Shown piece after piece: positions 9,986-54,041 of a stretch of DNA of 64,000 nucleotides. The translations under genes were made by a program, and so were the position numbers. Below the pieces are notes generated by a model that did not search any database, was not told the DNA's origin, and was given only the letters and a program-made list of their open reading frames with translations. Source of the stretch: Marsupella aquatica (taxonomy: Eukaryota; Plantae; Marchantiophyta); contig OZ316892.1 of assembly GCA_973895155.1 (NCBI GenBank), positions 12,154,238-12,218,237 of the forward strand, given 5' to 3'. Positions within the stretch are counted from its first letter, which is position 1. Each line of letters opens with the position of its first letter.

Positions 9986-10073
9986 AATGACTCTACAATT
10001 ATGACCGGTGTCTGGAATGACTATTGAGTATTTTAATCTTCATATCTCTTGGGTTCTTTAATGACTCTATAAG

Positions 10074-10865: not shown

Positions 10866-10886
10866 GGGCCCTGTTTTCTTCTAGTG
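10866..10886 (-). mobile_element. CACTA right-end TIR, element A
   Basis: GGGCCCTGTTTTCTTCTAGTG (reverse complement CACTAGAAGAAAACAGGGCCC) ends the dense GTCATT/AATGAC zone; composition changes abruptly after it. Confidence 0.8.
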
Positions 10887-15961: not shown

Positions 15962-16062
15962 AAAATAATCAAATCCGGATGGTTAGTCATTGGAACAGTC
16001 TTGACCAAAGACCATTTGAAGTCAAGTCAGTCCTTGAAATCAAATACCCCGTCTATCACCCT

Positions 16063-17447
16063 CTACACGCGTCTCGTGCAGAAATCACTGTATTGCGGAG
16101 GAAAGCTCAATCTATTCCTGAATAGACTTAAAATGATTTCTCTCCTCTCCAAATCTATGTCCTCTCCTGTGAAATCAAAAGGAAGGTCCAAACTACGGTA
16201 GTTTGCAAACTTCATAACTAACACACCACAATTATAGTAATCAGTTTGTCTTGGGATGTCCTTGGGACTATGTTTTGGCCATAGAGTAGCTAAGACTTGC
16301 TTGTGACTTCTGCTTTGAATTTCATCCTCGACATATCTGGCTAAGTTTTCAAGAACCTCTGGCCTATTGTTATGCAGAGAATCGAGATATTCTAAATACT
16401 TGTGTTCCATGTCAATCACAACTAACGCCCAATGATCGCCACCTTCGTGAATGGGGACGAATATTCGATGACAATCAATTAAGAAAAATATTTCAGTCGT
16501 GAAGTCCAAGCCTCCACGGATCGGTAAGAGTAGCCATTCGACGTCAGTGGAGTATAGAACCAACTGTCAAACACATGGCACTTCAGAAGCTCCCTGTCGG
16601 GATGTTCATTCCTCTCCACTATGAGACTTAAGTAGGCACTTAGAATATCGGAACTTATCCAATTTCTAGGACTCAAGCACCTCATCTGTCCACGAGTTAT
16701 TAGGCACCCATTAGTCCTGACTAGAACCGCATCCTGATCCAACAGATCACTGAGGCAATTGTCAATCCTCGTTTTGTTATCCATTGGATCCGGAGACGGG
16801 AGAGGACATTTGTTTATGTTTAGAGCTTTATGACTTGAGACAAGAGAGAGGAAATTGGCACCTGCCTCATTGGTTGCCTCCGCACGATCGACTCGCCTCT
16901 CTGACACCTCAGGAAGATTCACTATGAGAGAAAATGAGTTATCATTCTCTCTTGTTACTTCAGCGCTACGAGAGTCAATATTGTCATCGCATTGAAATTC
17001 AATCGGAGTGTGATCTTTTCCCACAATCCCAATCTCCTCCACAACAATCTCTTTTAAGGATCCACAATCCACCACCCCCTTCTCGACATCCTTGAGTGTA
17101 GTTTTTGCCTCACAATCATCAAAAACTGGGCCACTTTGAAGAACTGAAGCATCAACCAAAAGAGATTGCTCAACACCTCTGTTGCACTCTAACCCTAGAG
17201 GGTCAAATGAATTTTGAGGATCTACACGATACGTGTGTAGGGAGACATCATCCACAACATCTTCCAAAGTTTTGTTGAATGCAATCAACCTCGTGCCCGC
17301 CTGTAAGTTTTCAGAATTATCTGCCAAGTTACCATAACCTCCTTCAGCCATTAGAAGAGGAAATCCTTTGCGACTTGCAATTGGAACGACTGATGGACCA
17401 ATTCTCATCTCCCCAATGGAACTTAGAAACTTTTCCTCCACTTCCAC
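16063..17447 (-). pseudogene. Ulp1/SENP family C48 SUMO protease domain, frameshifted
   Basis: CLSPRNWISSDILSAY, CHVFDSWFY, IFVPIHEGGDHWALVVID, YLDSL, IPRQTDYYNCGV: His, Asp, Gln and Cys catalytic residues present; frameshift near 16500. Confidence 0.9.
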
Positions 17448-17477
17448 CCCGGTGTAATGTAAAACTGTACCGACAAT

Positions 17478-18374
17478 CTAATAATGATGGCCCTCTTTTG
17501 CTCCACTAGCATTGGAGTTTTGAGTCGAACTCCCTTCAAGGCCAGGAGGTTTCCACAATGATTTGGCAAACTGTGCAACTGGAACTAACAATTTAAGATT
17601 CTCTGCATAAGCTGTGAGGTCATAGACATCCTCACGGTCAGAGCAGAATGAAAAACACTCACGCTCAAGCATCAATGCATTCTTCAGTACCTGCCCTCTT
17701 GTGAAAAAATCCAGGACAATTTCCTCCCTCAAAGAAAATGCATGAATAAAACTCTGTAGGATGCGATTGGGCTTAATATTCAATGTGAATGGTCGTCCAG
17801 TCGTCAATTTGAAAGGAACAAGGCCTTCAAGTCGTGAGATCAATGTGTCCCTTTTTTCTCCTGAATATCTTCCTTCAAAATATCGGAATAATCCTCTCGA
17901 CTTGGCTTGATTGTCTCCTCCAGGTCGGACTCCTCCAACACAAAGTGTCCGGTAAAATCCTTGAAATGCTTTTCCCAATCAGGAACCCAATCTTGGGAGA
18001 CGCCAAGGAAAAGAACCATGTCCGCATCGCCTCTCATGTGTTGCGAAGGAGCATTAACCAAATAACTCCTCATGAACAAACCATATTCAAGGTGCGCATT
18101 ATAGTTCTCCGGGAGATCTCGAACAGCTTCAATTATTCTTGCAAGAATAATACCAAGACGAACAAAAAAAACAACTGTTACCAGATCATTTGTTGGGATA
18201 TTCACGACGATCTTCAAGAAGTTCAAGATTTTGGACTGCGTCCAAACCGGTTGTATGGGTCAAATCAACAATCGCTAGAGATGCCAATATTGACTCCTTG
18301 CAGCTAGCCGAATCAAAAGGAGGATCAGCATACGCGAGCAGATTTCCAATATAGAAAACTTGGTAAGGATCCAT
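17478..18374 (-). pseudogene. Degenerate beta-class amino (N6A/N4C) DNA methyltransferase-like domain
   Basis: IKPNRILQSFIHAFSLREEIVLDFFTRGQVLKNALMLERECFSFCSD matches the motif X-I-II pattern KP..L...I...S..GD.VLDPF.G.G....A..L.R..IG.E/D; upstream candidate motif IV LAYADPPF (or LAIVDLTH); split over three frames. Confidence 0.55.
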
Positions 18375-21300
18375 CCTTGCGCGGAGATGGCCGCCAACCT
18401 CTTTTGATGAATATTTCTCAACCTATTTTTCAGTGGCTCCGACATCTCTGCTTTTAATGACACCTTCACAAGGCTCTTGAAATATCCAGTGTCCACCATT
18501 GCACAACAACGATCCAATTCCTCATCTGTGAAATTATATTGTTGAACTACATCACCCCAAGTTGATCCTTGCGAGAAAACCCCTTCGTACTTCTCCCGAT
18601 AAAATCGAAGTATTGCCCCCTTAAGTTTGTCAATATACTTTGCTTTTCTTGCCAATTCTAACATATATGGCGGGAAGATCAGTCAAAGCATGTTTCTTTT
18701 TCATCAAAAGCGCCTCCCCCGAATTCACTTTGTGGAGGATTTCCAAGATGTCGGATTCTACGGCATCCTCAAAAACCCGGAATGTTGTCCTTGTCAACTG
18801 TTTTGCTTCTTTCGATTCTCCAGTCATTTGTCCGGTTGAATCCACAAGATTACCCTTGAGCCAATTATTGCAAACCCCTCTCCATAAAGAGTAGAGCTTC
18901 TGGGGAGCAAACAAAATCCAATTGTACTCGCTGATGCTATTCACCTTTAACGTAACTTTCGCAAGTGTTTCATACTCCTGGGAGGAAAGACCAAACAACT
19001 CAAAGTTAGTCAGCTCAAAGTTTTGAATCCCAAAATACTGGAAAGGCTCTACACGACTCTCGCGTAGAAAGGAGAGAAGGACAGAGTGTCTAAATTTTGT
19101 TCACAACTCTCATGGAGAACCAACCTGAAATTCTGGAGATTTCCAACCCGATGGAAGTGGACGAGCTGGTCGCCCCATATCATTGTATTGCATTCTTGCA
19201 TGTTTCACTTGGTCAATAAATGGAGATGAAAACCAATGTGCCTCCGCCTGAAGGTTGTTCGCGTGTGAAATTTCTACAAGAACTTTCACCGGAGTTGACC
19301 CTTTGAGAATTTGCGCTCGACAATATTTGAGCAAATTGGCTGTTTGCATGAGAGATGGTTGGGTCTTTGAACTTCGGATAATTTTCTTGGCGGCCATTGT
19401 GGAATGTTGACCACTGATGGCAAAGAACTTGAATTCCGCAAGCTTCTTGGTGTCAATATCCTTCCCGCAAGGTCAATTAAACTTGGTACTCCGTCGATCA
19501 TCTTGTAAGGAACCAAATCTGCAGGTAAAGGTTCTTGCCCTGCATTTGTCATCATCAGTTGCACAAGATGGTTGACATGCTCCTCATTGAGGAGTCTCTC
19601 ATTCATCTTTGCAGGAGGGGGATGGATGTTTTCAACCGGGACAGAAAAAAATTTGGATATCCTGAAACAATACCAAGACTTATTCAACTCCAATGTTTTT
19701 TTTGCAATCTCCAGACGAGCACGGTCGACAACTAGCTTTGCGGAACTAGGGTTCTCGTCAATATCCACATCTTCCTGATTTTTCTTTGCTTTCTTGGGCT
19801 TGCGAATGACAGCTTGAGAGGTGATGACAACCTTCTTCTCAATGTTTGGGGCCTTCTTCTCCACGGCTCTGACCATGGGAGCTTTCACAACAATTTCAGC
19901 CAACTCTGTGGTCGTTCCCCTTTGCTTAGGAGGCTTTGCCCTTGATTCCACAACTACTGATTCAACATCAAGTTTTGCTTTTTTCTTTCCCTTTGGTGAA
20001 GGATCTTTTACGACTCCCTTTTGCTTCAGCGTCCTGATCTCTGATTTGACCTTTTCAACTTTCTTCCTGACCGACGCAGATTTCTGTCCAATGCGAGACT
20101 TTTGAGACGGTTTCTCCTCCTGAGGTTTTGTTGGTGAAGCGACTTTCTTTGCATTGCTTGTTTTTCGTATTTTGTCCTTGATTCCTTGCACTTCCTTGAC
20201 AACTTGAATTCTCTTTTGGGAAGACGTTGCCTTTTCTTGTTTATCAACCGGAGATACGTTTTTTCCACCTTTCACTTGAGGCACGACTTCGCGCTGGTCA
20301 GAAACAAGAACTCTCTTTTGAGATGGTTTCTTGTCTTCTTTTTGTTCTTCCCGTTGAACCTTCTTGCGGTCTGTTTTTGCCGCAGGCGACTCATCTGCTT
20401 GATCAACAACTTTCACTCTCTTCCGAGGTAGTTTAGCTTCTTCTTTTATTTTCTCAAAATCAACCTTCTTCCGGCCTAGTTTCCCTGATGGTGATTTTTC
20501 GTCCACTGCTTTTTTCTTCCCACTGGGTGTGGATGACTCTGACACAACACCAGCTTTCCCCTTCCTAGGTGAAACTCCCTTTGAAGTCTTTGCGTATCGC
20601 TTCTCTGTTGGAGGCTTTGCTGGGGGGATGACCTCATTTTGTTGAATTTCCCCACTCTCAACATCATTGTTAATTGGTTCAACTCCACCTTCTAAACTTG
20701 TTGACTCTGACTCATTCTCTGACCCCGCCCGATTCTGAAAAGTCTTCTTGCTCTCTTCTTGGACACTTCCCTCCTCTCCGTCATCCTCATTTTCTGACTC
20801 ATAGACTGATATCGTTTCATGGGACTTTCTCTCTCCAGAGGCGGACAAGTCATCATCGGAGGAGTCATCCTTGTCCTTTCCCTCCCCATTCATCATTGTC
20901 AATCTCTTTTCCACCAGCTTCTTTCTTCCTGGGCGTACCAAGTCTTGGATTACTGGATGCCCTCAAATCCATTCCTCCACCTTTGTCTCACTAAAGTGTT
21001 TCATGAACACAACATTCGGAGAAATAGTCATCTTTCTCCTCCAGTCATCGTCTGGGATCTTCATCCGCATTATATGATCCACCTCTCATGTCCGAGAGAT
21101 AAAATATTTTGACTGCTTCATGACATAGGAGACCCGTCCGAGCCCCATAATTATTTCATCAGCCGTAAAGATCCGATCAGGTGAGAGCCATCTATCCGCC
21201 AAGGATCAAAGAAACCACATGAGACAACATTTGTGTCCTGGTTGTAAGGTTCAAGACAATGTGCTGAGCAAAACCCATGAAGTGGAGCAACCATCTGCTT

Positions 21301-21501
21301 GAAATTCCAAGAACTCTCAAACTCCAATGTCAGCAGAAGAGATGGGTTGTCCTTTGGGGACGCAAATCTCGTACAGTCTACGAGAGTGCCAAAACTCACA
21401 AAATTTCTTCGTCCATTTTCTGTTTTAACTCCCCTCACAATCAAACGGGAGTTGCCTTTGACTGGTTGCAATTCAAAAGACCATGAATTCACAATCACCA
21501 A
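18275..21501 (-). pseudogene. Lys/Glu-rich N-terminus, ParB/Srx-like domain and helical region of the large accessory protein
   Basis: FSVPVENIHPPP..MNERLLNEEHVNHLVQLM; after a frameshift at ~19462, KFFAISGQHSTMAA (cf. DGQHR/GERR box) and LVEISHANNLQAE (cf. ENLQRE); probable short intron ~19039-19124. Confidence 0.6.
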
Positions 21502-21989
21502 AATATTCTCAAGTTTTGCAACCGTTGGAGTTTCAATCCGAAGCCTGTCAGAACGGAAATAAACAGAGTGAACTCCTAGAAGACAAGGAGAAATATGTCA
21601 AACATCTGCACGACACTCGCGTAGAAAATAAAGTGAGCCCACAAACTGTTGCTTCATTATAAACAAAATGATGTGAAAACATCCTTTACAAAATGGCCTC
21701 TTTGGCGTGTAAACGGTCTGGCAAAAAATGACTATCAGAACTTTGGAGATAGTCTTATGAGCCATTTGAGCTCATCATGATTCAGAGTCAAAACATTGTC
21801 CAGATTTAAGAAAACAATCTAATCCGCTAGAAACATAAGAGTTCCCTAACTCAAAGTATGCGCACACATGTGGCCATGAAGGCAACAATTTTTCTTTTCC
21901 AATTCAATCCATCACACTTTGGTATCTAATTGTCTTTCCCTCTCTCGGCCATCGGCCAGCTCCTGTCGCAGGTCATGAACTTGACGATC

Positions 21990-22640
21990 TCAAAACTTCT
22001 CCATCTCAAGAGAAGCTTTCATGGACTTTGCCGCTACGTCGCAAGTAGTCAAATGCTGGATCTGTGCCCATTGATACTTTGCAAACATCTGCTCCCGTTC
22101 GTATTCTATTGCTTCCTTTTCATCCTCCAACGCTTTTTGGAGAATGGAACTCTCCATCAAACTCATATCAAATGCATAAATACTTTTTTGTAACAATCCC
22201 TCAATCTTCTCAAAATTGTCCTTGCGATGAGCGCCTTCCTCTAGAAAAGTTGAACGAACAAAGTCACATGAACAATGTTTTGATTCCATATGGTACATAT
22301 GAACGAGGATTCTACAAGACAGTCGCGTTGAAATCCATTATCTCCAAGATTGGAGAATCGGTTCTACGCGAGACTCGCGTAGAACTAAATAGGAAATTCT
22401 AAATTCTAACATAATGGCTCTCAAATAGAGACTATGGGTCGATGAAAGAGACCCATTCTACACGACTCTTGTGTAGAGCAGACTCAAGTTTAGCACAATC
22501 CATTGAAAACAGAGAAATGTAGGTCAAAATTACCTTTGAGCTTCCTCAATGCAGCGAGAGCAAGTAATTCGGCGTCATTTTCTGCCAAAGAAGTCGTCAT
22601 TCCCTTTGCACGTGCAAACTCCTCCACGATAATGTCAAGG
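21990..22640 (-). pseudogene. Upstream exon(s) of unknown coiled-coil-like protein
   Basis: ORF 21990-22298 plus a short exon ending ..ALRKLK|GTAATT near 22533. Confidence 0.35.
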
Positions 22641-22811
22641 ACCGATGAGTTGAGAAAAAACAAATAGAAAACATAAATGATCCAAGGTCCAAGGTCCGAG
22701 GTCCTTTTATAGTCCGAGACAAGCGTGAAAGAGCGTATCGTCCGAGGGGAGCGTGAAAGAGCGTATCATCCAAAGCGAGCGTGAAATGGCGTGAAACAAT
22801 CTAAGGGCCAA

Positions 22812-22935
22812 GCGTGAGAGAGAGAGAGAGAGCATGAGAGAAAGAAAGAGAGAGAGCAAGAGAGAAAGAGAGAGAGAGAGCGAGAGAGAAAGAGAGAGAG
22901 AGAGCGTGATTGAGAGAGAAAGACAATGAGAGCGA
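22812..22935. repeat. (GA)n microsatellite in the region between the divergent genes
   Basis: Long imperfect GAGAGA tract; CT-rich on the minus strand, typical of plant 5' leaders. Confidence 0.9.
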
Positions 22936-23429
22936 CAGCGAGCTGGAAAGCAACATATACCCCTTTCGCGTGGAATACTGTTGAACAATGATTGCGGTTG
23001 CTACCCGGCCGCCAAACCTGACACTCGGGATCCTGGACGTGTCACTAACATGGCAAACCACCACCCGCCGCCAAACCAATCTGCATTTATGGAAACGACT
23101 GCTCACCACACACCACGCCGCCACAAAAAAGTACTACACGACAATCTGGTAGAGTTGAATGTCTGAAATTCTTGCACCCCCACTCACTATATAACATGAC
23201 AGACCACTTTGTGCAAGTTATTTTTTGAGACCTGACTCATTCGTGCCTTCAGTCCGAGGTGGGACTGTCATTAAAGCGTGCTCTGTTGTTTCAGGTACTG
23301 CATCGGTACAGTTTCTCGTACAATTTTTCTCCTATCATTTTCAATTTTGTTTTAGTGATTGTGTCAGTATGTGAATGCATGTGCTTGAGTCTTTCCCATT
23401 GGGATGTGGTTGAACTGTATATTCAGTAG

Positions 23430-23765
23430 TAATCTCTATTGAATTTTGGACTTTTGATTGTCTACACGAGCCTCGTGTTGTTCCCTTCGTCTATGCAAAT
23501 ACAACGTTCAATAGGAAGTTCCTATAAGAAGAATACTCATTTCAAAATATCCATCTCTATATAGAAGGTTTAAGAGCCTACTAGTTGGATTCAGTCGTAA
23601 ACTGTATTGAATATTGGACTTTGGATTGTCTAACAAGCCTCGTGTTGTTCCCCTTGTCTATCCAAATACAACGTTCAATAGAAAGTTCCTCTAAGAAGAA
23701 TACTCATTTCAAAATATGCATCTCTATATGGAAGGTTTAAGAGCCTACTAGTGTGGATTCAGTCG
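23430..23765. repeat. 168-bp tandem repeat carrying the palindrome; third copy resumes at 33204
   Basis: TATTGAAT.TTGGACTTT.GATTGTCTA at ~23437, ~23605 and ~33211. Confidence 0.85.
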
Positions 23766-25063
23766 TGTGACGGGGCCAATGGTCCCAAGGAATGATTTTA
23801 AAGGGTAGTAGTGACGCATACATGTAAATACATAGATTTGTGTCAAGTTTTTTTTCTTTTGTTCTCTTACAACCTTGCCAACAATAGTTTATGCGCAATA
23901 TAGATGAGATAAGTAGTGATATTTTTTTCTAGGTCCTCTTAATTTTAGTTATCGGGCCAAGCCTCAGAGTTGGGGGGTTGGCCGCTGGCCGGTCCGGGCC
24001 AAGGCATGTGCCCTATTGCCATTCCATGCTGGAGCCGGGGGATTATCTAGCTTTACATTTTTATCACCAGCCCTAGTATTTGCGCATGGGGGCCGGTCGA
24101 AGGAGTTAGTGGCCAAGCACCGCATGAGGTGCCCCGGCCAGCAACATGGACCCTAGCACAAATTAGCCTCGGCCGAAAAGAGCTGGCCATAAGGGCAAGA
24201 AGTCCCGGAGAAGGGAGCCGGCCAAGAAGGAGGCCCGGCCTTAGCTTATAGGGGCACTAAGGGGGGATTAAATTCCCCTTTCCAAGAAAGCCAGCCAAGG
24301 GCAAGAGGCCTGGGAGAAGGGAGCCGGCCAGGAAGAGCAGGAGTGGAGCCGGCCCAGGAAGGCGCAAGAAAGAGGGCACGAGGAAGGAGCTGGCCAAAAG
24401 GTGGCCCGGGCTTAGGAGGAGGGAGCATGATCATGGGGATTAAATCCCCCTTCCAAGGGGAGGCCTCGGCCATAGGGGTGCGAGCCAAAGGGGAGCCGGC
24501 CAAGGGAAGGTGGCCCGGGAGGAGGGAGACGGCCAGGAGGCTTCGTGAACGAAGGGCAGGTGGCGCCAGAGGGAGCGAGAAAAGGTGAGGGGGGAGGGGA
24601 GTAATAAACCCCCCACACCTGGAGGAGGAGAAGGTACATAGGGGGCAGTTAAGGGCCCTTGGATCCCAGGGGGATCCCCAAACCCGGGAGCATAGGGCAC
24701 CGGGCCCCAAAGTGGTGGAGGGATTGGCCATTAAGGCGCCCATAGGGACGTGCGCCAGAGGGAGCGAGAGAGGGCGTGATGGGGGGAGGGGGATAATAAA
24801 TGCCCCAACCCTAGGGAGCAGGTCCGTGGGGGAGGGGGGCAGTTAAGGTCCCAAGGGATCCCCCAAATTGGGCAGAGCAGGTGCGTAAGGAGGAATGGGG
24901 AGGGGGATTAAAATCCCCCAAACCTGGGGGAGAAGGTTCATGGGGGAGGGAGGCAGTTAAGGTCCCTGGATCCCAGGGGATTCCCCCTTTGGGCAGAGCA
25001 GGTATGCAGGGTAGGAAGGGAGGCCTTGGCCATTAGGAGCGAAACTTGGGGGGAGGAGCGGCC

Positions 25064-25070
25064 TATATAA
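25064..25070 (+). promoter_or_regulatory. Putative TATA box for the long ORF
   Basis: CCTATATAAG after a G-rich repeated region and before a pyrimidine-rich leader. Confidence 0.55.
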
Positions 25071-25233
25071 GTGCTCATTTCCAACTCTTTTTTCCCAGTT
25101 TTTTTTGCGCTCCTCACTCATTGCCGAAACTCTTTTCTCTCCTCATCGATCAACCTTCCCCTTTGTGTCATGTACTACCTCTATTTTCCTTGAGTGATTC
25201 TGAGAGCGGCCATGGAGTGAGCTGGAGTGGGGA

Positions 25234-28200
25234 TTGACAAGGACTTGGAGAGGGAACCTGATTTATTTTATCGTGGTTGGGTACGGGGGCCGCACGAGGC
25301 CAAGCTCTAGGAATTGCGAAACGGGAATCGGTCCCCAGTTGTGCTCTTCAGGGGGAGTGGGGTGGATGAGATCCCCAGACAGACCTGAGTTCACCAACGC
25401 TCGCATTAGGAGGTACAAGGCAGCCTACCGGGAGTACATCACTTTGCAGCTAGCCCGAGAAGAGGAAGAGAAATTGGCAACCAGGGCCACAATGTCAGGG
25501 ACCAATGAAGCACCCATGTCACAAAGGACTCAATGATGTTCATACCCCAAGACATTGGCCAAGCTTCTAGACGATAGCCGTGAATTGTTTGAATCCACCG
25601 TGATTATCAATTTAATGCGAGTGGACATGCGTGCTCCAATGGATAGGCATTAAAAGATTGAGGATGGGATGGACTTACGGGATGATGGATTGTACTTTGC
25701 ATGCATCAAGCGCACCCTCCCTCATGACGAATTGACTCGGTTGCTGATGTTGCACAACCAGGACCTGACATTCTACCCCATGGAGCCACCAGGGACACTC
25801 ACATTGGAAGAGCTGGCCATGTATGTGAAGGAGGCTACCTCTGTGGTACACATTTCCCTTGCATCCTTCAAGGACCCAACGCTCAGGGGTTTTGTTGGAA
25901 AGGTCCATGTGATGCCTAGACAGGAATCACTCGGCCAGTTAAGTGGGTAAAGCAGGAAGGCACCCTAGGAACACCTTAGTATAGGGACAAAACAAGGAAA
26001 ATATAAACCATTAGGGGCAACCATGGAACCCGGGCCGAGGCCGGAGGTAAGGACGCTGAGGGTGAAAACTCGATTAGGGTTAGGGCGCGTTAAGCGTCGG
26101 CGGCTAGGAAGGATCAACGGGAAGAAGGACCGGCAGAGGAGAGGGGTAAGGAGTGCTTGCAGGAGATGGTGGCTCATTTGCAAGCACGAACTAGACAGAC
26201 GACTACGGGAGGCCAACTACTGTCAGCTGCTTAGGCAAGCACTCGGGGAGAGAGTAGATACTGACGATCGACCTAAGGAGGGTATGAGCAACGTCAATCA
26301 AGCGGCACATTTCTGGGGATGCCTGTTCGAACGGGCAACTGAGTACATCAAGACTTACGAGGACGAGGAATCAGAAAGGGCAGCTCGAGAACGGTAGGAG
26401 CTCGCTCGATTGTGGGAGCTGCAGAAGACGGTTTTCTTAGGAGGCGAACTCATCAAGGACGAGTTCCTATGGACGCCTACTTCCAATCAACTCGACGATC
26501 TTCTATTTTGCAAAGACAGCGTCGTCGGCATCCGAGAGGCCATCAAGAACTGCAACGACATACACTGGGAATTAAAGGGTAGCACGGAAAGGTGGACCCA
26601 GGCAACGGTGCTAGGAGAAACCTCCACGGCAGCAGAGATGAAGAGGAAGGGAGCTGTCAACGATGAAGCCACCCCGGCAAAAAGAACGAGGTCGGCGGCA
26701 CCAAAGAAGCCAGCCGAGCAGCAGAGCAGGAGGCAGGGAGAAGCCGAAGAGGAGGAGGTCGATCCCATCAAGGCCATTCCAACCAGGGATGACACCTGGA
26801 AGGGCTGGGCGGCAACCCTACCGGTGGAGGTGCAACTACATTTTGCACGGGAGGAGGATGCATGCTTCACGGCCATGCAGACCAAGAAGTACCAAGGCTT
26901 CATGGCCGGATCCAGCTTAGAGGCCTTTGTAAGATTACCATGGCTGAAGCCGGAGGTACCGGAGTCAGACCTATTAGAATTCGTGGGGTCATGGGAACCC
27001 GAGACCAATTGCACGAGGATATATGGGAAGGATTTCTATCTTACTCCCAAGGTAATTGCCGAAGTGTTTGGCTTGCCGATAGGCAATAAGACCAAAGTTG
27101 ATACCAGGAAGACCTTGCCTGACAAGGAGTTCCGGTCGTTCCCCGGGCCATCAACGAAGAATGGCTTCTTCCGGAACACCTGCACCAACCCGCACATAGG
27201 AGAGATGATCGACTTCTTGCGGGTGACCATGCATTGTAACTTGCCGAGGGCAGAGATCGGCAAGGCACAGGTCTATCTGGCAGAAAGGCCAGACCCAAGC
27301 CGGGACTACAATGGGTACCTCCTCAACCAATTGAAGAAGATCTTAAAGGAGGAGCAACAGGTAATCGGCATGGGGAGCGTGTCGCGGCTTGGCTATCACA
27401 TGCCGCTGTTGTGCCGGTATGCCAGAGGTCAGACTTTTGCCCCGGTACTTCCCCTGCAGGTAAGGGCACCCAAGGAAGCTCCAATGCCGAGGCCGTTGGC
27501 TGAGAAGCCTCAACCACCTGTTAGCCCTACGATTGAGCAGGTGTTTAGGCCCAGGAAGGAGGACTTGCCGATGCAGCAACCAGGCATGCAGAGTCTGCTG
27601 AAACTACTGGAGAACGAAAAGAAATCGGCATCGGCAACAACAACGGCAACGGCAACAATGGAGGACACTACTACAGAGGTAGGCCTACACCGGCTCACAA
27701 GAGAAAACCCCTTTGCTGGAGACAAGGAGAGAATCAGGCCGGAATCCAAGCCCGGTGTTCGAATGTATGTGGGAATCTCAAGCTCCGAATCTGAGGCAGA
27801 ATTGCCTGAAGCTCCTACCGACGAAGAGGAGAGGGAGAAGCCGGACGGCCAAGAAGTAGAGGAGGCAGTGGAGGACTGCAGCCATGATAATTCCGGCTAT
27901 GGGTCGGACCATCACGTCCCAGGAGTAAGGACCTGTGGCCGGTTTGTCCCCACACTTCCAAGGGTAGTGCGAGGGGACCCCAACCAGCAGAGTAGCCCTG
28001 AGTCTCCCCCACCAGATGTTGCTCCCCCGAGCTTCGACGGCATAAAACAGACGGTGCAGGAATTTCAGGAGCGAATCAAGCAGGAAGAGGAGGCAGCCCT
28101 GGCTAGGGAAAAGGATTTACCAGGAGGAGATTGGCCGGAGGACATCAGGCGGCTAGCCAAAAAAGGAAGCAAACCTCTAGCCACGATTGAAGAGATCCGC

Positions 28201-33410: not shown

Positions 33411-36400
33411 ATGGCTTCAAGAACGCAGCTTCTACTTGGAGAAGTCGTTCACCTGCTTATCAATGAACAACCAGTTGCTGGTGGAAAGGTTTTTTGTGTT
33501 CTATCTTTCGACACCTGCCACTCTGTGTTGCTTGGAGCAGAACGGATAAGTGTGGTGGTGGACAATGCTTTTTTTCACCTCGAACAGCTGCCGAATCCAC
33601 ATGTGGGAGCTGATCTAGTAGGAGAGTCGGTGAACTCCGTTGTTTTGTGGGATCGGCAAGATGTCCGCCATGCAAATGACATGAATCTTGGAGGTCAAAC
33701 AGATTCAGCTTATGTCATTGATGACCCAGTTGACAATATTCAAGGTAATTCTGAATCAGCCACCGGACTGGAGGGGAAAAAGGTTTTTGCGGAGGATCTG
33801 AAAGATCGTAGCACATGGTTCAAGAAGTTTGCCCTTCTCTATGCGGACAACGGAGAAACCTTGCTTGCAAGAGGTTGCATCATTATCCCACATCCTCTCG
33901 CGTCCATTAACAACGAGCGAGTTGGGGAAGATCATGTTGGTGTGAATATTTCGAGTCTAGCTATTGAAGCTGGCTTGGGAAAAGTTTTGTTCCCTCAATT
34001 TGTTGACGGATCACCATGCACAGTTTGATGGCCAATCAACAAAACTAGGATTGAGCCTAGAATGGAATGTCTGAGTGATCTTTTAGATTGGAATGATGGT
34101 AACGATGAGGGAGTTAGAATTCTCTCATATATCAAGCCAAAAAGGGGCTATAACAATCAACAAAGAAATCCTCAAGATTCAAACAAGAAGGAGAGAAAAT
34201 GACTCGAGAAAAGACGCAATCAAAAGATGTCTCGAGTGTCCATAGATACTCTTTATCGGGTTGATTGTTGCTCACAGAGTTGTTGTCAACGACAACTCCG
34301 TGAGACCGTCACTAACATTAGGGAAGAGTACTATGGTCTATCTCATGTTGAGCAACATACTTACGTGCTCAATCATCTTCATTGTCGTGACGATGAAACC
34401 ATCGCCTTAGGCATGATTGTATTCAAGGGAAGCAGGATCTGCAAGGAAGCTTTCTAGAATATTCATGGATTTTCTCGAGGAACATTTTACACAATGTATT
34501 CAGGATACATGGTGGGGGCAAAAGTTGGTGTTCATGGGAATGAATGGACCATCAAGACCAAAGACTACGTTGTGTTGTTCACAAAATCAATTCGAAGTAT
34601 CCTACATAAATGTGCAGAACCAATGCCACATCTTCACAAAATTGGTGTTTCAGGCAAGTAGGAAGTTGTTTTCAGGGTTCCAATAAGTTTCAGGAGAAAA
34701 GATGTTTTTGAAGAGGCTTGCGAGCTTAACAAAAACCTGGGTATTCACTCGCCCTCTCTCCCAACCTTCTACAAGCTTTTGGATAAATATTTCCCCAATT
34801 TCCAATTCCAAGGTTGGAGCAACTTTGCAAAATGCGATCTCTGCACGACCATTAAAGAAACACTTCGGGGGGAGAAACGGATGGATAAGATTTTAGAAAT
34901 CAAGGCAAAGCGCAAACGGCATATGTTGGAACAACAATCACGCAGGAGTATGTACTATGCAGCAAAACTTGCGGCGGACCAAGAGCCCAACAAATATTTT
35001 TCTGTGATTCACGATAAAATGGATCAAGCCAAGACCGGAATCCCTAAAATGACTTCTACACTCAAGAGCCAAGGAGGCAAATCAATCCCGCTACCAATGA
35101 CGCTGATGGGGATGTTAACGCATGGACGGGAGCCTGGAATTTATGCACATTTTGCCCTTTCTGGTTTGTGGGCAAGCGGTCCTGATTTTACAGTCTCTTT
35201 GCTTGCAAAGTTATTTTGTGATCTCGAATCATTTGTGGGAGATAAGACCGGCGATCTAGCTCTCAACACCTCTAACGTCACAGATCCAATCTTTGTATCC
35301 CTCTTGGATTGGCGTGCCTTTGAGGTAGGATACCTTGAAACCAAAAAGATCTCTCTCGCTCACTTCGCAGGGCTTGGTGACTCACACAAGAGTCGCGTAG
35401 AGCCTTCAACATCGCTACCCTTCAAGGCGCTTCCTTGACACCTCCACCTTCAACTTGATAACTTGGGAAAGGATAACAAGAACCAGACAGTTCTGGCTTT
35501 CTGTAGCGAGCTTGTTCTAAGAGGAGTGTTTGAGTCTGTAACTCTTTCCTTTTTGATGGTGGGGCACACTCATGAGGATGTGGATGCCTTCTTCTCTAGA
35601 GTCGGGATAAGGATCTACAATCGAGAGCTTACCACATTTTTTGGTTTGATGGCGGAGGTTTGGGAGTGCAAGAAGAAACATCCGGTTCCAAGGTTCATCC
35701 GCAAAGTTGCATCTTACAAAGCTTATGTAGGACCATTTGTCAAAGGATCCAGGGTCAATCAACACCTATTCAATTCTTGTTCTCAATGAAGGAGAATGTC
35801 CCAGTCTACCAATATCGAGAGAAAATTGATACGCCTTGGCTACCGACAAAGGGTCAAACAATTTGGTTGTTTGACTTAGAGAGAAACCAATACAAATTTC
35901 CAATTGGAAGTCCTTATTCCAAGTGGATGGAGTCTTCTCACAAGCGAGCGAATGACATTTTGGAATACTTGATCCATTATATCTCATGGTTGAAGACTGC
36001 ATGGAAGGATGTTACATTGGAGGGATATCGTCTCCAAAGTCCAGAGATTCAATACTGGAAAAACATTGTTTCTGTGTTTCAGGACACACTTTGCTCTCCT
36101 TCGCTAGCAGGGGTAGATTATCCATTACTTGCTGGATTCTAGCCTCGAACGAACCATGGAACTGGGTATTGTCAAGATGGTCAGAACATGGATACCAACC
36201 CAAGCGAAGACAATGGGGTGATGCATAATCTGGAAAGAGAGCTTCAAGAAGATGAAGAAGAGAGGCAAACAATCTTTGTCGGACACCCTTCTCAGCGTGA
36301 GAGGTCAAGATTTACTCCTCTAGAAGATATTAAAAAGAATACATTTGTTATTATTTGACCCACCGATGAATTTGAAACCAGAATTCCGCAACAATTTTGG

Positions 36401-36620
36401 CTTGCAAAAGCAATCGATTGTGTCGTAAGAGATCCCGACGATGCGCATGTTGGAGAGTTCCAAGTTGAATGGTGGCACCCTCTTAATCGCAAGAGTTTGG
36501 CAACCAAATCAAAAAGATATCAGGACTGCTTTAATTCAAGCAAACGTGGGAAATGGATCCCAATTACCTCATTCCCCCAATCATGAATGATTGGATCCTA
36601 GCAACTTCAACCATCACCGG
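33411..36620 (+). pseudogene. DUF7869/Sola-like DDD transposase, disrupted
   Basis: CCSQSCC..IREEY, ICKEAF*NIHGFS, FAKCDLC, IHDKMDQAK, LQLDNLGKDNKN, FLMVGHTHEDVDAFFS; multiple stops and frameshifts. Confidence 0.75.
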
Positions 36621-36946
36621 ATGGACATCAAAAGCAAAAGCAAAGGTAAAAGTTCCAGTAAGAGTTTTGGAAAGTGTGAAGGTTTACATTTCAAAAACGA
36701 TTGAAGAGAACTAAAATCCTTTCTCGACTCGAGACTCGCGTGGAAGACACTTGGTGATGCACGGCACGTCCTAATTGTCAGGTTCAGGATTGTGGGAGAA
36801 CAATAGGCGAGGTTGGAGCTGGTTTGTTCCAATCACTTTTCGCACGAGGCTCGTGTAGGTCGGATTACTTAGCTCGAGGATCATTTTTTGGAAAGTGAAA
36901 GGTGTGTACTTGTACTCAATGTCATATTCACTGCAATGGCGTGCAT

Positions 36947-37290
36947 TGTTGAGCATAGACGACATTCGCAACGGCAAGCCCATGAACCATCCAACGCACA
37001 ATAGTCGACGCAGAGAGATACGTGGTTCACCTCCACATGAGGCTATGTCCACGGGAACACACAAGAGCTTTACTGCACTCTAGGCCGACCGGCCATACCA
37101 AGCATCCACAGCACAAGCTCTTCCTATCTCTCAACTAGCTCCGTAACAATGAGCCTAAGTTCCACTAGGGTCTGGCATCAGCCCTGGCTATATGCACAAC
37201 AGCACTACCGCTAACATTAGCTAAGTCCTAACCCGAGTTAGCCTAACTCTAGTTAGCTCATGAGTCACAAGACTAGAGCAATATCTAACA
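36947..37290 (-). repeat. 3' LTR
   Basis: TGTTGAGCATAG...TATCTAACA; 5 mismatches to 43454-43797 by my count. Confidence 0.97.
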
Positions 37291-37303
37291 AACTCCCCCT
37301 TGA
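37291..37303 (-). other. Polypurine tract
   Basis: TCAAGGGGGAGTT on the minus strand, adjacent to the 3' LTR. Confidence 0.9.
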
Positions 37304-37497
37304 CTCTTGTCTTGGGGACTAGACTAAATGCTACCATATGGAATCCTCAGCGGGAAGTTCTAGACAATCACCAAACCAGGTCTCCCCCTAAAAACCACAA
37401 GGGTTAACTAAGGGTTAACTAGAACTAAGCCGTAGCCTAACAGGAATGAGTAATCCATATACAAAGAGTCACACATTGCTAAATAACTCTACTTGCA

Positions 37498-40400
37498 CTA
37501 CAACTGCAAAACCTGCAAAGTAGCACGGTGTCTTGAGAAACTCTCCAAAGGAATCACTTTGGTAAAGGCATCAGCAGGATTGAGCTTTCCATCAATCTTG
37601 ACTAGCTCAAAAGTTTTATCAGACACTGCTTGCCTGATAAAATGGTACCTGATATCAATGTGCTTCACCCTGCTATCCATCACCTGGTTAGCAGCCAAGT
37701 GAAGAGCACTCTGACTATCACAGTTTAGAGTCATTTTTCCATGCTCTAAACCCATCTCCGCGATCAACTTATCCAACCAAATTGCTTCCTTTGTAGCTTC
37801 TGCTGCTGCAACATACTCTGCTTCTGTAGTAGACTGAGATATGCACTTCTGCAAGGTAGATTTCCAACTGATACATCCTCCTCCAAGAGTGTATACAAAC
37901 CCAGTTGTAGATCTCCTTGTATCCAGATAGCTTCCATAGTCAGAATCTACATAGCCAACTAACGTTCTATTTGATCTGTTATTAAATAGTAATCCATAGT
38001 CCTGTGTTCCCTTCACATACCTGAGAATCCATTTCACAGCTTCCCAATGTACCTTCCCTGGATTTGACATGAATCTGCTAACCTTGCCCATCGCTAGGGC
38101 CAAGTCAGGCCTAGTACAAGTCATCAAATACATCAGACTGCCTACTGCCTTCTCATAAGGAATCTTAGCCATTAGACCTTTCTCCACAACATCCGTAGGA
38201 GAGAAAGCCGATGATAACTTGAAATGTGAAGCTAAAGGAATACTCACTGGCTTACAGCTCTCCATGTTGAATCGTGCAAGTACTTTCCTCGCATACTGGC
38301 CTTGACTCAAGCACAACTGTCCAGTCTCAGAGTTCCTAAAAATCTCCATCCCTAAGATCCTCTTGGCCTTACCAAGATCCTTCATCTTGAATTCAACGCT
38401 CAATTTCGCCTTGAGACTGTCAACCTCAGATTGATCTTTAGCCACAATTAGCATGTCATCCACATAGATCACCAGAATGATGAAACCAAATACATCATTC
38501 TTGACTGATTTTGTATACACACAAGGATCATACACCATCCTTGTAAAACCTTGAGCAAGCATGAAATCATCAAACCGCTTGTTCCACTGTCTGGGAGACT
38601 GCTTCAATCCATACAAGGATTTGAGCAATCTGCAAACTAAGTTCTCTTGGCCCTTCTTCATAAAGCCTAGTGGCTGTCTCATGAAGATCATCTCTTCCAA
38701 GTTGCCATAGAGAAAAGCAGTAACAACATCCACCTGATCCATCACCAGATTAAAAAACACAACAAGCTGACACAAGATCCGAATTGTGGAATACTTAGCC
38801 ACCGGTACGTGAAAAGACCTCATTGTAATCCACTCCTTTCTCCTGAGTGAACCCCTTGGCAACAAGCCTTGCCTTGTAGATCTTATCTCCACCCTCTGAA
38901 GGACTGTCCTTCAACTTGTAAATCCACTTGCTGTCCACCACTTGTTGACCTCTTGGAAGCTCCACCAGCTCCCATGTCTTGTTGTCACTCAAAGATTGCA
39001 ATTCCCTCTACATTGCTGCATTCCACTCATGCTTCTGCTCTGAAGCACAAGCCTCACTATACGAAGAAGGCTCTCTTTCTTCCAAGATCAAAGCCATATC
39101 ATCTTCATCAGGTGCAATGTCAATATCATCTAGCTTAGATGAGTCTGCCCATTGACCATACCTGGTAGGAGCTCTAGTAGAACGATTGGAAGTTCTTCTA
39201 GTAGATGACTCTAGCTGATCTGCTGCTGCTGCTGGCTGAATTTGAGGTACCCCAGCAACAATCTGCTCCTCTTGTTCCATCATAGGAACCAGCTCCAAGC
39301 CCGGAGCTTCTCCATCTCTCCTGTCATGAACTGCATCATGACTAATCTCCCCCTCAACCTGGTCCGGGATGGGAGATTTCCCCTTGTCAGTATGGGAGTC
39401 CTGAGAACTCTCCCCCTCCTTTGATGATCTGGATTCATTAAAGGACACATCTCTACTGACAATTAGTTTACAGGTTACTGGATCCCATAACCTATAACCC
39501 TTAACACCTTTCTGATAGCCAAGGAAAATGCACTTCTTGGACTTGGACTCCAGCTTGGATCGAAGTTGGGAAGGTGTAAGCACATAAGCATCACATCCAA
39601 AAATCCTCAGATGTGAGTAATCTGCTGGACGCCCGTACCTCATTTCAAATGGCGTCTTGAATCCAATAGAACTGGATGGAGAAAAATTTACCAAATAAGC
39701 TGCAGTGTTGACAGCTTCAGCCCAAAACTCATGTGGTAAGCATGATTGACTCAACATACTCCTCGAGCGATCCAATAGTGTTCGGTTGAGTCTCTCAGAA
39801 ACACCATTCTGTTGAGGAGTATAGCTTGTTGTGAGATGGCGGGTAATCCCCTGCTCCTTACAATACGTTCCAAATTCACCGGAACTGTATTCACCGCCGT
39901 TATCCAATCGAAGATATCTCACCTTATTACCAGTCTGATTTTCAACTTGGGCTTTCCACTCCTTAAAAGTGGCAAAAACATCAGACTTATTGTGTAGAAA
40001 GTATATCCACACATACCTTGAGTAATTGTCAATGAACGTGACATAGTATAACCGTCCAGAATGTGAGGGAGTAGGGGCGGGACCCCACACATCACTATGT
40101 ACATACTCAAGTACCTCCTTGCTGGTGTGAGTTCCAACTCCGAAGGGTTTCCTGTGCTGCTTCCCTAGCACACAGTGCTCACAAAATTCTAACTTACAAG
40201 ATTGCAAATTAGAAAGTAATCCTTTCTTCTGAAGAATAACCAAACCTTTTTCACTCATGTGGCCCAAACGGAAGTGCCACAGCCGGGCCGTCTCCTCATG
40301 AGATAAGGTTACATTGGCTTCATCATAGACTACACTGCCCTCCATAACGTATAGATTGCAATGTCTCTTTCCCTTCAATACAACTTTAGTACCAGTTGAA

Positions 40401-41773
40401 ACCTGAAGGACACCATTAGCAGAACTCCACTGATGGCCATTTGCCTCTAAAACTCCAAGTGAAATGAGATTTTTCATCATGTTGGGAATATGTCTCACAT
40501 TCCTCAATGTTCTCACAGCACCATCAAACATCTGAAATCTTACAGATCCAAGTCCAACAACTTGACATGGGATTCCATTTCCCATCAACACTGACCCGTT
40601 GGAAACCGTGTAAGAACTGAAATAATCTCTTCTAGAGCAAATGTGAAAAGTACATGCACTATCTAGAATCCAGTCATCACTACCTGGATTTGACACTACG
40701 TTGAGAGCATAACCTTGACATCACAATATGTCATCATCATCGAGTAAATCTACCTCATGCGAGCTCGATGCCGCGTTAGCAGAGGCAGTAGGGACCTTTA
40801 CTCGACAATCCCTTTTCATGTGGCCAGGCTTGCCACAATTCCAACATGCAAAAGGCTTTCTCTCTTGCGATTTCCCTCTGGATTTAGATCTCCCCCGTGA
40901 TGTAGATCTAAACCTATTTTGTCTATTCGTGCGTTGCGCTGCTCTTCCCCATTCACATTGAGCGCAGTGCCAGAAGAAGATGATGTTTGTGATTGACCCA
41001 ACTTCTTCTGAGCATCATCAGACAGTAATGAGCTCACCACCTCATTATACGAAATGGACTTCAGATCTCTGTACAAGAGCACCTATTTCAAGCCCTGATA
41101 AGACGACGGTAAGGAGCTTAGCAGAAGCAAGGCCTTATCCTCATCTTCAACTCCTTTTTCTAAGTTTGACAAATCCACCGCTAGACTGTCAAACTCATCC
41201 AGGTGATCCTGTATCTTGCTCCCTTCCTTGAGCCTGCGGCTCATCAAGAGAGACTTCTTGTACAGCCGGTCTGACGCATCTTCCCGGTAGTATTTCTCTC
41301 TTAGAGCCTTGAACAGTGACGTGCAATTCGCATAATCATCCAATTGCTTGATGATGTGCGGCTTGAGATATAGCATCACTGCATTGACAGCAATCACCTG
41401 CTCCTGTCTCCACTGCTTCTCTGAGATCTCCTCTTCTCCATCATACTGCTCTCGCGTAGAGAGCAGATGAGCTAAGCCCATGGCCCGAAGGACACCCTTC
41501 ACTTGCTTCTCCCACAGCAAGTAATCAGTACGACCATCGTACTTCTCCACCTCAAACTCACTCCTCCAAATCTAGCCATCTCCCTCTTCTTTCCAACTAC
41601 CGACAGCTCTGGTAGTAACACAGCTTCCTCCACTGCACGTCGCACCGGTGATCATATCGGTGTCACTAGTTCCTCCTCAAACGGTAGCAGCTCCTCAGAC
41701 TCTCCGTCTGACCGTCGCGATCCTGAAGCTCCACCGATGCCAATTCTTCCAGTATCCTCCGAGTCACTCATAT
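37498..41773 (-). pseudogene. Copia gag-pol polyprotein with stops and frameshifts
   Basis: gag EKYDGRTDY; PR WILDSACTFH; IN HSDVWGP..YYVTFIDNYSR..QNGVSERLNRT; RT LLKSLYGLKQSPR, YVDDML; RH SQSTTEAEY, KHIDIRYHF. In-frame TAGs at 41083 and 39008; frameshifts near 40950 and 38810. Confidence 0.95.
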
Positions 41774-43439
41774 GAAACAATCACAAAAAAATGTCTTTTT
41801 TCGAAACTTCTCACAAAACTCAAAACTCAACACCGCCGCGTAGCCCACGAAGCTAGGAGTCCAATACTGAAAGCCGAAATCAAAATCAAAATTCGACAGA
41901 AAAGTTATTCAAATTTCGGTCGGGGTGGGTAAAACCTTGGGAAACTCCCCTGTTTTGACCACCTCGGAGAATACCCAGTATAACCCGTCGTTGGAATTGC
42001 GATGTGATCGGTGCGCCGCGATGCTAACTCCAGTGGCAACGTCCTCACCGAAAAAGAACCAAAAAAGTTACCGTTCGGCGGACAGAATCTTTGTCGAACG
42101 GCTGAAAAACAGCTCTTTGTTTTTTGGGAATATTCCCGCACAGTATAGCAGGTCTCACAGGGGGCCGTTCCCCCTGTCGGAGCGGTTAAAACGGAGGGTC
42201 ACAGGGCCCAGGACAGCCAATAGAAGAGTCAGCAAGAAAGACAAAAAATTGGCCTTGAAAAGGGGGTGTAAAGGCCCTTTGGCAAAAATACGCCTTAAAA
42301 GCACGACGCGAGGCGGGCCAGGCAGAGTACAGGGATACGGGTGGGGGTAAACACGGGCGGGAAGGGAGGAACGACGGAGCCGCGTACAGGCGGTAGCCGC
42401 CGTGTATAGGCAGAGCTGGGCTGGGGGTCGCGAGTACGTCGTCGCGAGGCAGCGGCCGGCCGTGAGGGAGTTACAAAGGGCGAGGGCCTGTATACGGGCT
42501 CACTTAGGGCCGAGGGGGGCTAAATGCGGCCAGCAGCAGCTGCAAACGCACCGGTCGGCGCTGCGCTGCGCCGTGTATTCAGGGTGCACCGGGGTTTGCA
42601 AAGGTAGGGGGGCGCGGGCCTAGCAGGGGCGTCCAGCGAGCGGGGAGGGGGGGGAAACAAATACACAGGGGGAGGAGTCGGGGCCCAAGTGTGTGTATAC
42701 ACCTCGTATACACACACAGGGACCAAACCCCCTTTAAACGCCAAAAATGACCCCCCCAAGCAAAAATCAGTCACACACCTTAATTGCCGCTGATTTAAAC
42801 GAGAAAAGTGAATGCCGCCAAAGGGATATGTAGCCGAAGTGCACCGACACAGTCTGCAGCTCCAGCAGAGTAAATTATTTCCGCCGCGTCGCCTTCACTC
42901 CGCGTCAAGTACCAATCCGGGCTCAAAACGACCGCCTCGCCGTGATCAAACCGTAGAGCCGTGGCACTTCGCGTCTCTCCCAACAAGTCGGACGTCACAA
43001 AGGGAAACCCGTTTCAGATGAGAACAAGCTCCATAGCTTGTGAAAAAACCTGAACGTCTCCTTCACTCGTCACGACGCACTCGGTAACAACTCGGCAGCA
43101 ATCCAGCTACCAAAACGACCAGCTCGCTTCAACCTTCAACTTGAGCTATAATGTGTGATCCCTCCCGTACCGCACAGCTCACTCCGTTGAAAAATGCAAA
43201 CTCTGGTCTCTCCCCCGAAAACCCGTCGAACACGAATAAAACCTGAACGACGCAAACTTTGATTCCTCCGCACCACAGATACCGATCAGCGAGTTCTAAC
43301 CACCGTTAGAAAGCCCTCTCACTAACCTATCCGCTCAGCCACACACATTCGAGTTTCATGCGACAAAACTCTGAATGTGTCACCGACAATGAACGCTGGA
43401 AAAACCTGTCACGAAAAAACCTCGTCACCTCCCAGGCAT

Positions 43440-43451
43440 GCTCTGATACCA
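43440..43451 (-). other. Primer binding site (initiator tRNA-Met)
   Basis: TGGTATCAGAGC on the minus strand, 2 nt inside the 5' LTR. Confidence 0.95.
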
Positions 43452-43453
43452 CT

Positions 43454-43797
43454 TGTTGAGCATAGACGACATTCGCAACGGCAAGCCCATGAACCATCCA
43501 ACGCACAATAGTCGACACAGAGAGATACGTGGTTCACCTCCACATGAGGCTACGTCCACGGGAACACACAAGAGCTTTACTGCACTCTAGGCCGACCGGC
43601 CATACCAAGCATCCACAGCACAAGCTCTTCCTATCTCTCAACTAGCTCCGTAACAATGAGCCTAAGTTCCACCAGGGTCTGGCATCAGCCCTGGCTATAT
43701 GCACAACAGCACTACCGCTAACATTAGCTAAGTCCTAACCCGAGTTAGCCTAACTATAGTTAGGTCATGAGTCACAAGACTAGAGCAATATCTAACA
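43454..43797 (-). repeat. 5' LTR
   Basis: Direct repeat of 36947-37290. Confidence 0.97.
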
Positions 43798-44503
43798 TGC
43801 ATGTCGACCTTTGGCTCGTGTCCGTTGTGGCCACAATGATGGTTTGGTGCCGGATCACGAGATTTGGGTAGGATGTGCTCAATTTCCTCCGTTATTGAGG
43901 TTAAATTGACAGGTGCTTTTGTATCATAATTGTGCTACACGAGGCTCGCGTAGGATGTCATAATCAACTTATGACTTGCAAATCCCGGATCTTATCACAG
44001 ACACCCATATCACACGGCATGTACTAATTGTCGGGTTGAGGACTGTGGGAGAACAATAGGCGAGGTTGGAGTTGGTTGGTTCCATTCACTTTCCGCACGA
44101 GGCTCGTGTAGGCCAAACTACTCAGCTCTAGGATCATTATGACCTTGGAAAGTGAAAGGTGTGTACTTGTACTGAATGTCACTTTCACTGCAATGGCGCG
44201 CATGTCAACCTATGGCTCGGGTCCGTTGTGGCCACAATGATGGTGTGGTGCCGGGTCACGGGTTTTAGTATCATAATTGTGCCATACATGGCTCGCGTAG
44301 GATGTCATAATGAACTTATGACTTGCAAATCCTGGATCTCATCACACACACCTTTATTCGAGAGGCTTATTTCTCTCCTTCAAGTTATGCTTTGTGATGA
44401 ACTTCTGGCTCAGTCTCCAACATCTCTCTGATCAAATCTTCCTTTTCCCAATTGAGCGTTTGACAACCATTTTGGATCGTGGTGATTTTCCTTAACTTTC
44501 ATA

Positions 44504-53950: not shown

Positions 53951-54041
53951 CCTAAACATCATTCCAGGCAGCAATTCCCGTTCTGTGACTCTGTGTAGGT
54001 AGTCATCCTCAACCTCATACTTGCCAACCGCCAGCTGTTGC

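Follow-up and report, generated by a model that had tools for sequence, protein, structure and literature searches.

The giant transposon Sola1-1_Ec32 (21.5 kb) of Ectocarpus contains, opposite its transposase, a gene with ParB-like and N4C/N6A methyltransferase parts, whose product was proposed to bind and modify its own element (PMC12477816; here and below, statements on published work refer to the available passages of the papers). The Plavaka elements PAG2 and PAG3 of Bostrychia have tandem inverted-repeat arrays beside a ParB-like gene, which were proposed as the sites of its product (bioRxiv 10.1101/2025.02.11.637652), and the binding of a ParB-like transposon protein to inverted repeats of its own element is, as a proposal, already in print for red algae. 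In Arabidopsis, VANC recognises short motifs within the introns and upstream DNA of its VANDAL family and removes methylation (PMC5735166, PMC10398659). KorB of plasmid RK2, with its 12 OB sites (according to a cited title), acts at a distance and hydrolyses cytidine triphosphate (CTP), and the box that reads GERRxR in ParB reads GARRYR in KorB (PMC11790492). A bacterial-type N4/N6 methyltransferase fold, MpDN4MT1, has been described in the liverwort Marchantia (bioRxiv 10.1101/2021.02.12.428880). Here we describe a palindromic site that occurs on a large, broken DNA transposon in 64,000 nucleotides of the liverwort Marsupella aquatica (assembly GCA_973895155.1, contig OZ316892.1, positions 12,154,238 to 12,218,237 of the forward strand; this whole stretch of 64 kb is called the window). 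What is new is a defined site whose single copies are scattered over introns, linkers and promoter DNA in a land-plant element, and alongside it a gene that appears to join a Ulp1 domain to a ParB fold whose box is altered. The literature searched yielded no defined dispersed site for a transposon ParB-like protein, no bryophyte case and nothing on DUF3723 together with ParB; the available passages of PMC4738411, PMC5751038, PMC12633428, PMC12730594 and PMC13547354 held nothing on such sites.

The palindrome was confirmed as a real and sharply defined feature, with 15 to 17 occurrences on the transposon. An earlier note on this DNA had listed 16 starts and two weaker copies: all 16 starts and the weak copy at 23134 carry the motif, and the other weak copy, placed at about 23630, is present near 23629 as a decayed tandem twin of the site at 23462 with a one-base deletion. 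The fixed spacing given in that note was retained, its layout of two nine-base arms around a single base was not: the core is an 8-3-8 arrangement of the arms CTACRCGA and TCGYGTAG around an S-N-S centre (CTACRCGASNSTCGYGTAG). The flanking position 0 is a T in 13 of the 17 sites and position 20 an A in 9 of them, so that the site may be 21 bp long. The refined pattern gave 16 matches at three mismatches or fewer in the window, against 0.02 expected, and none of 100 shuffles reached this number. The pattern of the earlier note gave 13 matches at three mismatches or fewer and 17 at four or fewer, all within the three host segments that were defined for the counting (14351-23766, 33127-36945 and 43798-44400); the other 50 kb of the window, which comprise the nested insertions and the flanks, gave no match. 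The claimed confinement to one element thus holds, as a statement about these 64 kb. Simulation of the host segments with an order-3 Markov background produced no match at three mismatches or fewer in 60 runs. In a leave-one-out test with a weight matrix, in which twin sites were removed together, 15 of the 17 sites scored between 20.4 and 31.2, above the top score of 200 shuffled windows (19.7); the site at 23134 was borderline (15.1) and that at 44282 (8.6) is accepted only because it is the twin of 43935. Between the sites and all other sequence in the window there is a sharp drop in score. The 16 matches were obtained with a spacer of 3, whereas other spacers gave at most 3 scattered matches, except for 5 shifted re-hits at spacer 1. 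The sites, named by their first base, and the introns that hold some of them are as follows.

16063..16081, site; its TAG is the stop of the Ulp1 frame
17222..17240, site in the open linker between the methyltransferase-like and Ulp1 domains
18978..19124, minus strand, intron holding site 19049, with GT..AG ends; the match to the spliced homolog P0136 continues in the exon that begins at 18977, and homolog matches stop near 19122-19158
19049..19067, intronic site with 0 mismatches
21606..21624, site in a probable intron, some 30 bases ahead of an AG
22241..22533, minus strand, probable intron of a coiled-coil gene, with GT..AG ends and open frames on both sides, holding sites 22312, 22364 and 22458
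22312..22476, three clustered sites, 22312, 22364 and 22458, of which 22364 lies within a perfect 25-bp palindrome
23134..23646, intergenic sites: 23134 (borderline), 23462 and the decayed twin near 23629 in a 168-bp tandem unit
33236..33361, sites 33236 and 33343, both in front of the start of the transposase gene
35382..35400, site in a variable, disordered transposase linker (indel relative to P0001; gappy alignment columns 660-666; predicted local distance difference test score, pLDDT, below 50 at 659-672)
36725..36858, sites 36725 (10 bases past the transposase stop) and 36840
43935..44300, sites 43935, 44093 and 44282 in a duplicated unit split by a Copia insertion

As to placement, a homolog-supported intron holds one of the 17 sites and probable introns hold four; another four lie between the divergent genes, gene ends have two, the right-hand duplicated unit contains four, and the remaining two are in coding linkers. 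Long open frames hold only the latter two, plus the one on a stop, which is indeed the Ulp1 stop, as the earlier note had said. The binomial probability of finding 3 of 17 sites in coding sequence is 0.0005 if 60% of the sequence is coding, which is a rough estimate, and 0.04 if the right-hand units also code; no coding frame stands out in this right-hand tandem unit and no Pfam match was found in it. At position 44288 other copies carry a G, which is closer to the consensus. With the insertions removed, the largest gap between sites is 2.6 kb and the first site lies 1.5 kb from the left end. The element extends beyond the zone between the outermost sites: it also comprises its first 1.5 kb and 44302-46100, both without a site. 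The use of the motif's final TAG as a splice acceptor was considered and dropped; the homolog-supported acceptor is at 18978, away from the site. The better-matching arm tends to lie outward, which is the 3' side on the sense strand of the genes next to it, with a switch between 33236 and 33343; this is a lead only (Fisher P 0.048, 10 informative independent sites, breakpoint picked post hoc).

Comparison of 40 bases on each side of the sites gave background identity (median 0.29) for 133 of the 136 pairs. The unrelated flanks reported before were therefore recovered for all but three pairs (23462/33236, 36840/44093 and 43935/44282), each of which lies within duplicated units, and these pairs reduce the set to 14 independent sites. 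Shared flanks, as expected of remnants of a miniature inverted-repeat transposable element (MITE), were found only in these internal tandem units. Given the unrelated flanks, the fixed spacer and the lack of covariation between the arms, the palindrome reads as a site for a protein on double-stranded DNA, and not as a MITE remnant or a hairpin. The earlier suggestion of a dimeric-protein site instead of a tandem repeat or MITE is supported to that extent, with the amendment that some copies came from local tandem duplication. Each arm appears to drift independently around CTACRCGA, as would be expected of half-sites that a protein dimer reads on duplex DNA. The outer CpG of the arms has the CA/TG form in 23 of 34 cases and the CG form in 9 of 34, while C4 is a C in 33 of 34. 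This choice at one CpG next to a preserved C4 points to real degeneracy and not to random decay, because random deamination would affect both strands. The proposed special retention of CpGs was not borne out: the outer CpG is mostly CA/TG, and the observed/expected (o/e) CpG ratio of the element is 0.67, against 0.59-0.70 in other young insertions. A protein may read 5-methylcytosine and T alike there.

The candidate binder is encoded on the minus strand of the element, by a long, broken gene that contains a ParB-like, a methyltransferase-like and a Ulp1 region; this strand also carries the coiled-coil gene and a gene with a NIF fold:

14913..15982, minus strand, pieces of a NIF/FCP1-like phosphatase-fold gene (Pfam NIF, E 2.3e-11 on 15407-15982)
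16066..16700, minus strand, Ulp1/C48 protease domain, split by a frameshift (Peptidase_C48, E 3e-19 and 0.0028)
17481..18422, minus strand, broken N4/N6 DNA methyltransferase-like region with an S-adenosylmethionine-binding-like motif at 17694-17711
19125..19750, minus strand, ParB/Srx-fold domain with a GQHS box at 19401-19412 and a frameshift near 19461

The order of the ParB-like, methyltransferase-like and Ulp1 regions suggests that they formed one protein, although a stop at 17478-17480 lies between the frames of the latter two; at the frameshift in the ParB-like region, reads insert a T after 19461. The His, Asp and Cys residues of Ulp1 are present in the translation (DHW, DSL and QTDYYNCG). 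The ParB-like label of the earlier note is backed by the predicted fold of homologs. A full HMMER scan yielded 45 homologs of the ParB-like piece, and an organism name was available for 3 of the 9 examined, all liverworts; word-based homolog searches with this piece and with the methyltransferase piece gave nothing. The model of the homolog alignment (pLDDT 86) matched PadC (Z 8.6, root-mean-square deviation 3.0, 100 aligned) and KorB (Z 7.9, 2.7, 94 aligned), all of the 9 best VIA rows and of the first 44 ranks shown by Foldseek belonged to the ParB/Srx fold family, and Foldseek placed Noc, PadC and ParB first. Among the ESM Atlas neighbours of the ParB-like homolog P0121 were fungal DUF3723 clusters (score 0.95) and a ParB_N cluster; DUF3723 is known as cargo of Starships. 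The methyltransferase-like call rests on three signals, each weak alone: a sub-threshold Pfam match, a PADLOC match to MTase_II (E 0.002) and ESM Atlas (0.91, with 30 of 30 matches in that family). No methyltransferase was among its three PDB sequence matches, and PDB sequence searches gave nothing useful. A DPPF motif occurs at 18315-18326, and the strand-end position identified by eye (18261-18272) reads IVDL at a frameshift; in the homolog P0164, which did not align, no (D/S/N)PP(Y/F) motif was seen by eye.

We put the probability at roughly 0.55 that the palindrome is the binding site of a dimer of this ParB-fold/methyltransferase-like/Ulp1 accessory protein. A twofold-symmetric protein, presumably the one with the ParB fold, would read two CTACRCGA half-sites on duplex DNA and coat the element, and is predicted to block host silencing or to regulate the genes of the element. 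The sites would be kept where they are tolerated, in introns, linkers, the promoter and gene ends, and the absence of gaps above 2.6 kb is what a factor with a reach of about 1 kb would need. The C/T choice at one CpG may allow a methylated site to be read, the output could be chromatin control through the Ulp1 and methyltransferase-like domains, and new sites are gained through short local duplications. Several observations weigh against this reading. The Pfam N6_N4_Mtase match (E 0.018) is below the cut-off, and Foldseek gave no match at E ≤ 0.001 (best 7e-3). The box reads GQHS, with Ser in the place of the ParB Arg in 39 of 40 homologs and Arg in none; this replacement of GxxR means that the protein is not a canonical ParB CTPase and makes CTP-driven sliding doubtful, but it may still work like a ParB. 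No helix-turn-helix family was matched in the pieces scanned of the region after the ParB fold. The CpG o/e ratio does not rise near the sites (0.53 within 100 bp, 0.73 beyond 1 kb), nor is it higher in the element than in other young insertions. Finally, the one distant transposase locus from a metagenome scan (L001/L002, two copies) has neither a ParB gene nor a dispersed palindrome within 10 kb. A more far-reaching version, which we regard as speculative and rather unlikely, is a parS/KorB-like system of a land-plant transposon, in which a ParB-fold clamp with a rewired nucleotide box would load at 15 to 17 methylation-tolerant palindromes oriented outward from the divergent promoter, spread over the whole element and deliver a SUMO protease and a methyl-DNA module against silencing, as an independently built second VANC-like system.

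The sites could instead be bound by the transposase, as a help in synapsis or for transcriptional control of its own copies, which is unlikely. Two features bear on it directly:

33411..36714, plus strand, intronless DUF7869 transposase gene (Pfam E 3.8e-30; tblastn with P0001 over residues 33-1094)
14601..14738, plus strand, short direct repeats TTTCCAAA, four exact copies in about 140 bases, of ten in the window; they differ from the palindrome

Transposases have been presented as transcriptional regulators in a preprint (10.64898/2026.08.24.746577). The gene is closely bracketed by sites (49 bases before the start and 10 after the stop) and encodes a multidomain protein of 1,100 residues. 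Against this, the outermost sites are 1.5 kb away from the left end of the element and 1.8 kb or more away from the right end, and the left end has its own short repeat, TTTCCAAA, whose copies are candidate end sites of the transposase. End sites of transposases are usually direct repeats near the ends, which also counts against the transposase. The position of the palindromes away from the ends, together with the different left-end repeat, speaks for a factor that acts along the whole element rather than for a transposase that recognises its ends.

The present transposase copy is dead, with 7 counted in-frame stops and two frameshifts. It looks like a DDE type: three motifs have invariant acidic residues (D538/D541, D687 and E726/D727/D729), and the best fold matches of a model of the homolog alignment, though weak, are TnsB strand-transfer complexes (E 1.5e-3). 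DUF7869 was the only domain found on it and on three full-length homologs; this family may be Sola-like. There were 181 homologs at E ≤ 0.001, and the named ones among the 120 listed were from Riccia sorocarpa and Calypogeia fissa, which by itself would make a bryophyte or some other seed-free plant the probable host. The model of the transposase P0001 also partly matches Tudor/Agenet/KOW-like readers (ADCP1, AGDP3 and Spt5), all weakly. Viral contigs contained no exact 21-bp site and no transposase; a ParB match in them was false and falls in a phage tail gene.

Quite improbable is another binder, either the product of an unannotated gene of the element (the coiled-coil gene near 22000-22700 or open reading frames beyond 44400) or a recruited host transcription factor. 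Several open reading frames of the element gave no family match, the sites cluster around the divergent promoter region, and the half-site contains CGCG/CGTG, the core read by CAMTA-type plant factors, which counts for a host factor. However, 16 specified bases in strict twofold symmetry are long for such a factor, and no copy occurs in the 50 kb of other DNA in the window.

We consider it very improbable that the sites are neutral leftovers of a tiny mobile unit or of local duplication. Such duplication does occur: three pairs share flanks, among them 23462/33236, where the unit around 23462 recurs at 33199-33253, beyond the first nested insertion; the tandem twins (23629 and 44282) decay; and a contig of run X2 doubles back from 22333 to 22310, a local gain of a site. 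This account is at odds with the background flank identity of nearly all pairs, with the score gap, and with a placement that avoids conserved coding sequence and a variation that is position-specific. Single-strand hairpins or cruciforms in DNA or RNA are largely refuted and scarcely credible, for although one copy is a perfect 11-bp stem (-12.4 kcal/mol) and the folding z is below -2 in 8 of 17 sites, 9 of 17 fold no better than z -1.5, a mid-stem A-C mismatch is present in 6 of 17, the arms pair in 79.1% of cells without covarying (matched by 475 of 500 shuffles), a two-sided change is seen in 1 pair only (470 of 500 shuffles are as high), the window has no Rfam match and the transposase looks like DDE, not HUH.

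The element that carries the sites and its nested insertions were delimited as follows:

14569..46100, host DNA transposon, at least 15.3 kb without the nested insertions; left end near 14569, right end at or beyond 46100
23767..33130, nested insertion 1, free of sites, with a very high-copy repeat at its core (25552-30863)
36946..43797, minus strand, nested Copia with 345-bp long terminal repeats that are 98.6% alike and a TGCAT target duplication, no sites

Assembled contigs of four public runs cover the stretch, and parts of it occur in three organisms. The left end was placed near 14569 since a contig of run X5 leaves the window after 14568, a contig of run X3 begins at 14569, and the read depth of run X1 falls there from the approximately 55,000 of a high-copy neighbour to 2,200. 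Since the X3 contigs extend as far as 46100 with similar depth, the right end was not located, and no inverted partner of the left end was found within the window. The many divergent contigs fit a repeat family, with read depth not to be taken as copy number. The insertion at 23767-33130 has near-inverted ends (TGTGACGGGG ... CCCCGTCATA) and long coiled-coil open reading frames, in which no reverse transcriptase or transposase match was found; the read depth of its core is 100 to 300 times that of the surroundings. To the left of the element, 12576-14568 is a decayed Copia relative (71% to the intact Copia) into which the element appears to be inserted, and its continuation was not found to the right. 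Further to the left, an array of units of about 580 bp with internal inverted repeats, followed by 83-bp units, spans 5200-10880 and ends near a CACTA-like end. The 24-bp tandem units at 12048-12443 each have a spaced palindrome (TCCGATGC-like arms, spacer 5, 7 matches) and adjoin a CACTA-like end at 12502, typical of subterminal repeats. Further right in the window lie a pseudogene fragment of ribosomal protein L18a (48094-48444, minus strand), which may or may not be part of the element, and a CACTA (Transposase_21) element (49080-62323), of which the flanking 2.1-kb inverted arms, 84% alike, each encode NSD-like PHD fingers, and which contains a BRCT open reading frame.

Giant transposons in brown, red and green algae carry genes for ParB-like accessory proteins, and so, as seen here, do those of liverwort relatives. 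Binding of such proteins to their own element has so far only been guessed, and a precise, 15-fold site makes this guess directly testable; a 16-base, possibly methylation-tolerant site with a spreading protein might also be used to target chromatin editing. Of the described systems, MpDN4MT1, likened here by description only, is a host gene with an intact TSPPY motif, and ParB is not mentioned in the passages on it. With KorB/OB and ParB/parS the locus would share the ParB fold (a dimer in KorB), a short odd-centred palindrome of about 16 specified bases, judged from sequence only, a dozen sites per mobile element and the control of genes over long distances, and KorB was the second-best VIA match of the liverwort ParB-fold model. 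Those systems are bacterial, keep the Arg of the box where the liverwort protein has GQHS, and have an unrelated site sequence. The likeness to Plavaka consists of a giant transposon, a ParB-like accessory protein and inverted repeats as proposed sites, and Plavaka also has an N6 methylase-like gene; it differs in its EnSpm-type transposase, in the fusion of ParB to a 2-oxoglutarate oxygenase, and in arrays that lie next to the gene instead of dispersed single sites, for which the passages give no consensus. Sola1-1_Ec32 is likewise a giant DNA transposon with nested insertions and a ParB-like plus methyltransferase-like gene on the opposite strand, a likeness of gene content and arrangement. 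It comes from a brown alga, no binding site was described for it ('palindrom' and Ulp1 each occur 0 times in the main text), and it has a 282-bp terminal inverted repeat and a 4-bp target duplication, which were not found for the liverwort element within the window. VANDAL/VANC resembles the present case in having its motif in introns and upstream DNA, gained by duplication, and the effect of VANC spreads over the element. VANDALs differ in belonging to the Mutator family, while DUF7869 was the domain recovered here, in their proteins with DUF1985/DUF287 in place of a ParB fold, domains for which the scanned open reading frame pieces of the broken copy had no Pfam match, and in non-palindromic motifs of 8-9 bases with proven binding and demethylation. 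In function, the Arabidopsis VANC motifs are, by analogy, the counterpart of the palindrome, which offers a handle on the resistance of transposons to silencing outside Arabidopsis.

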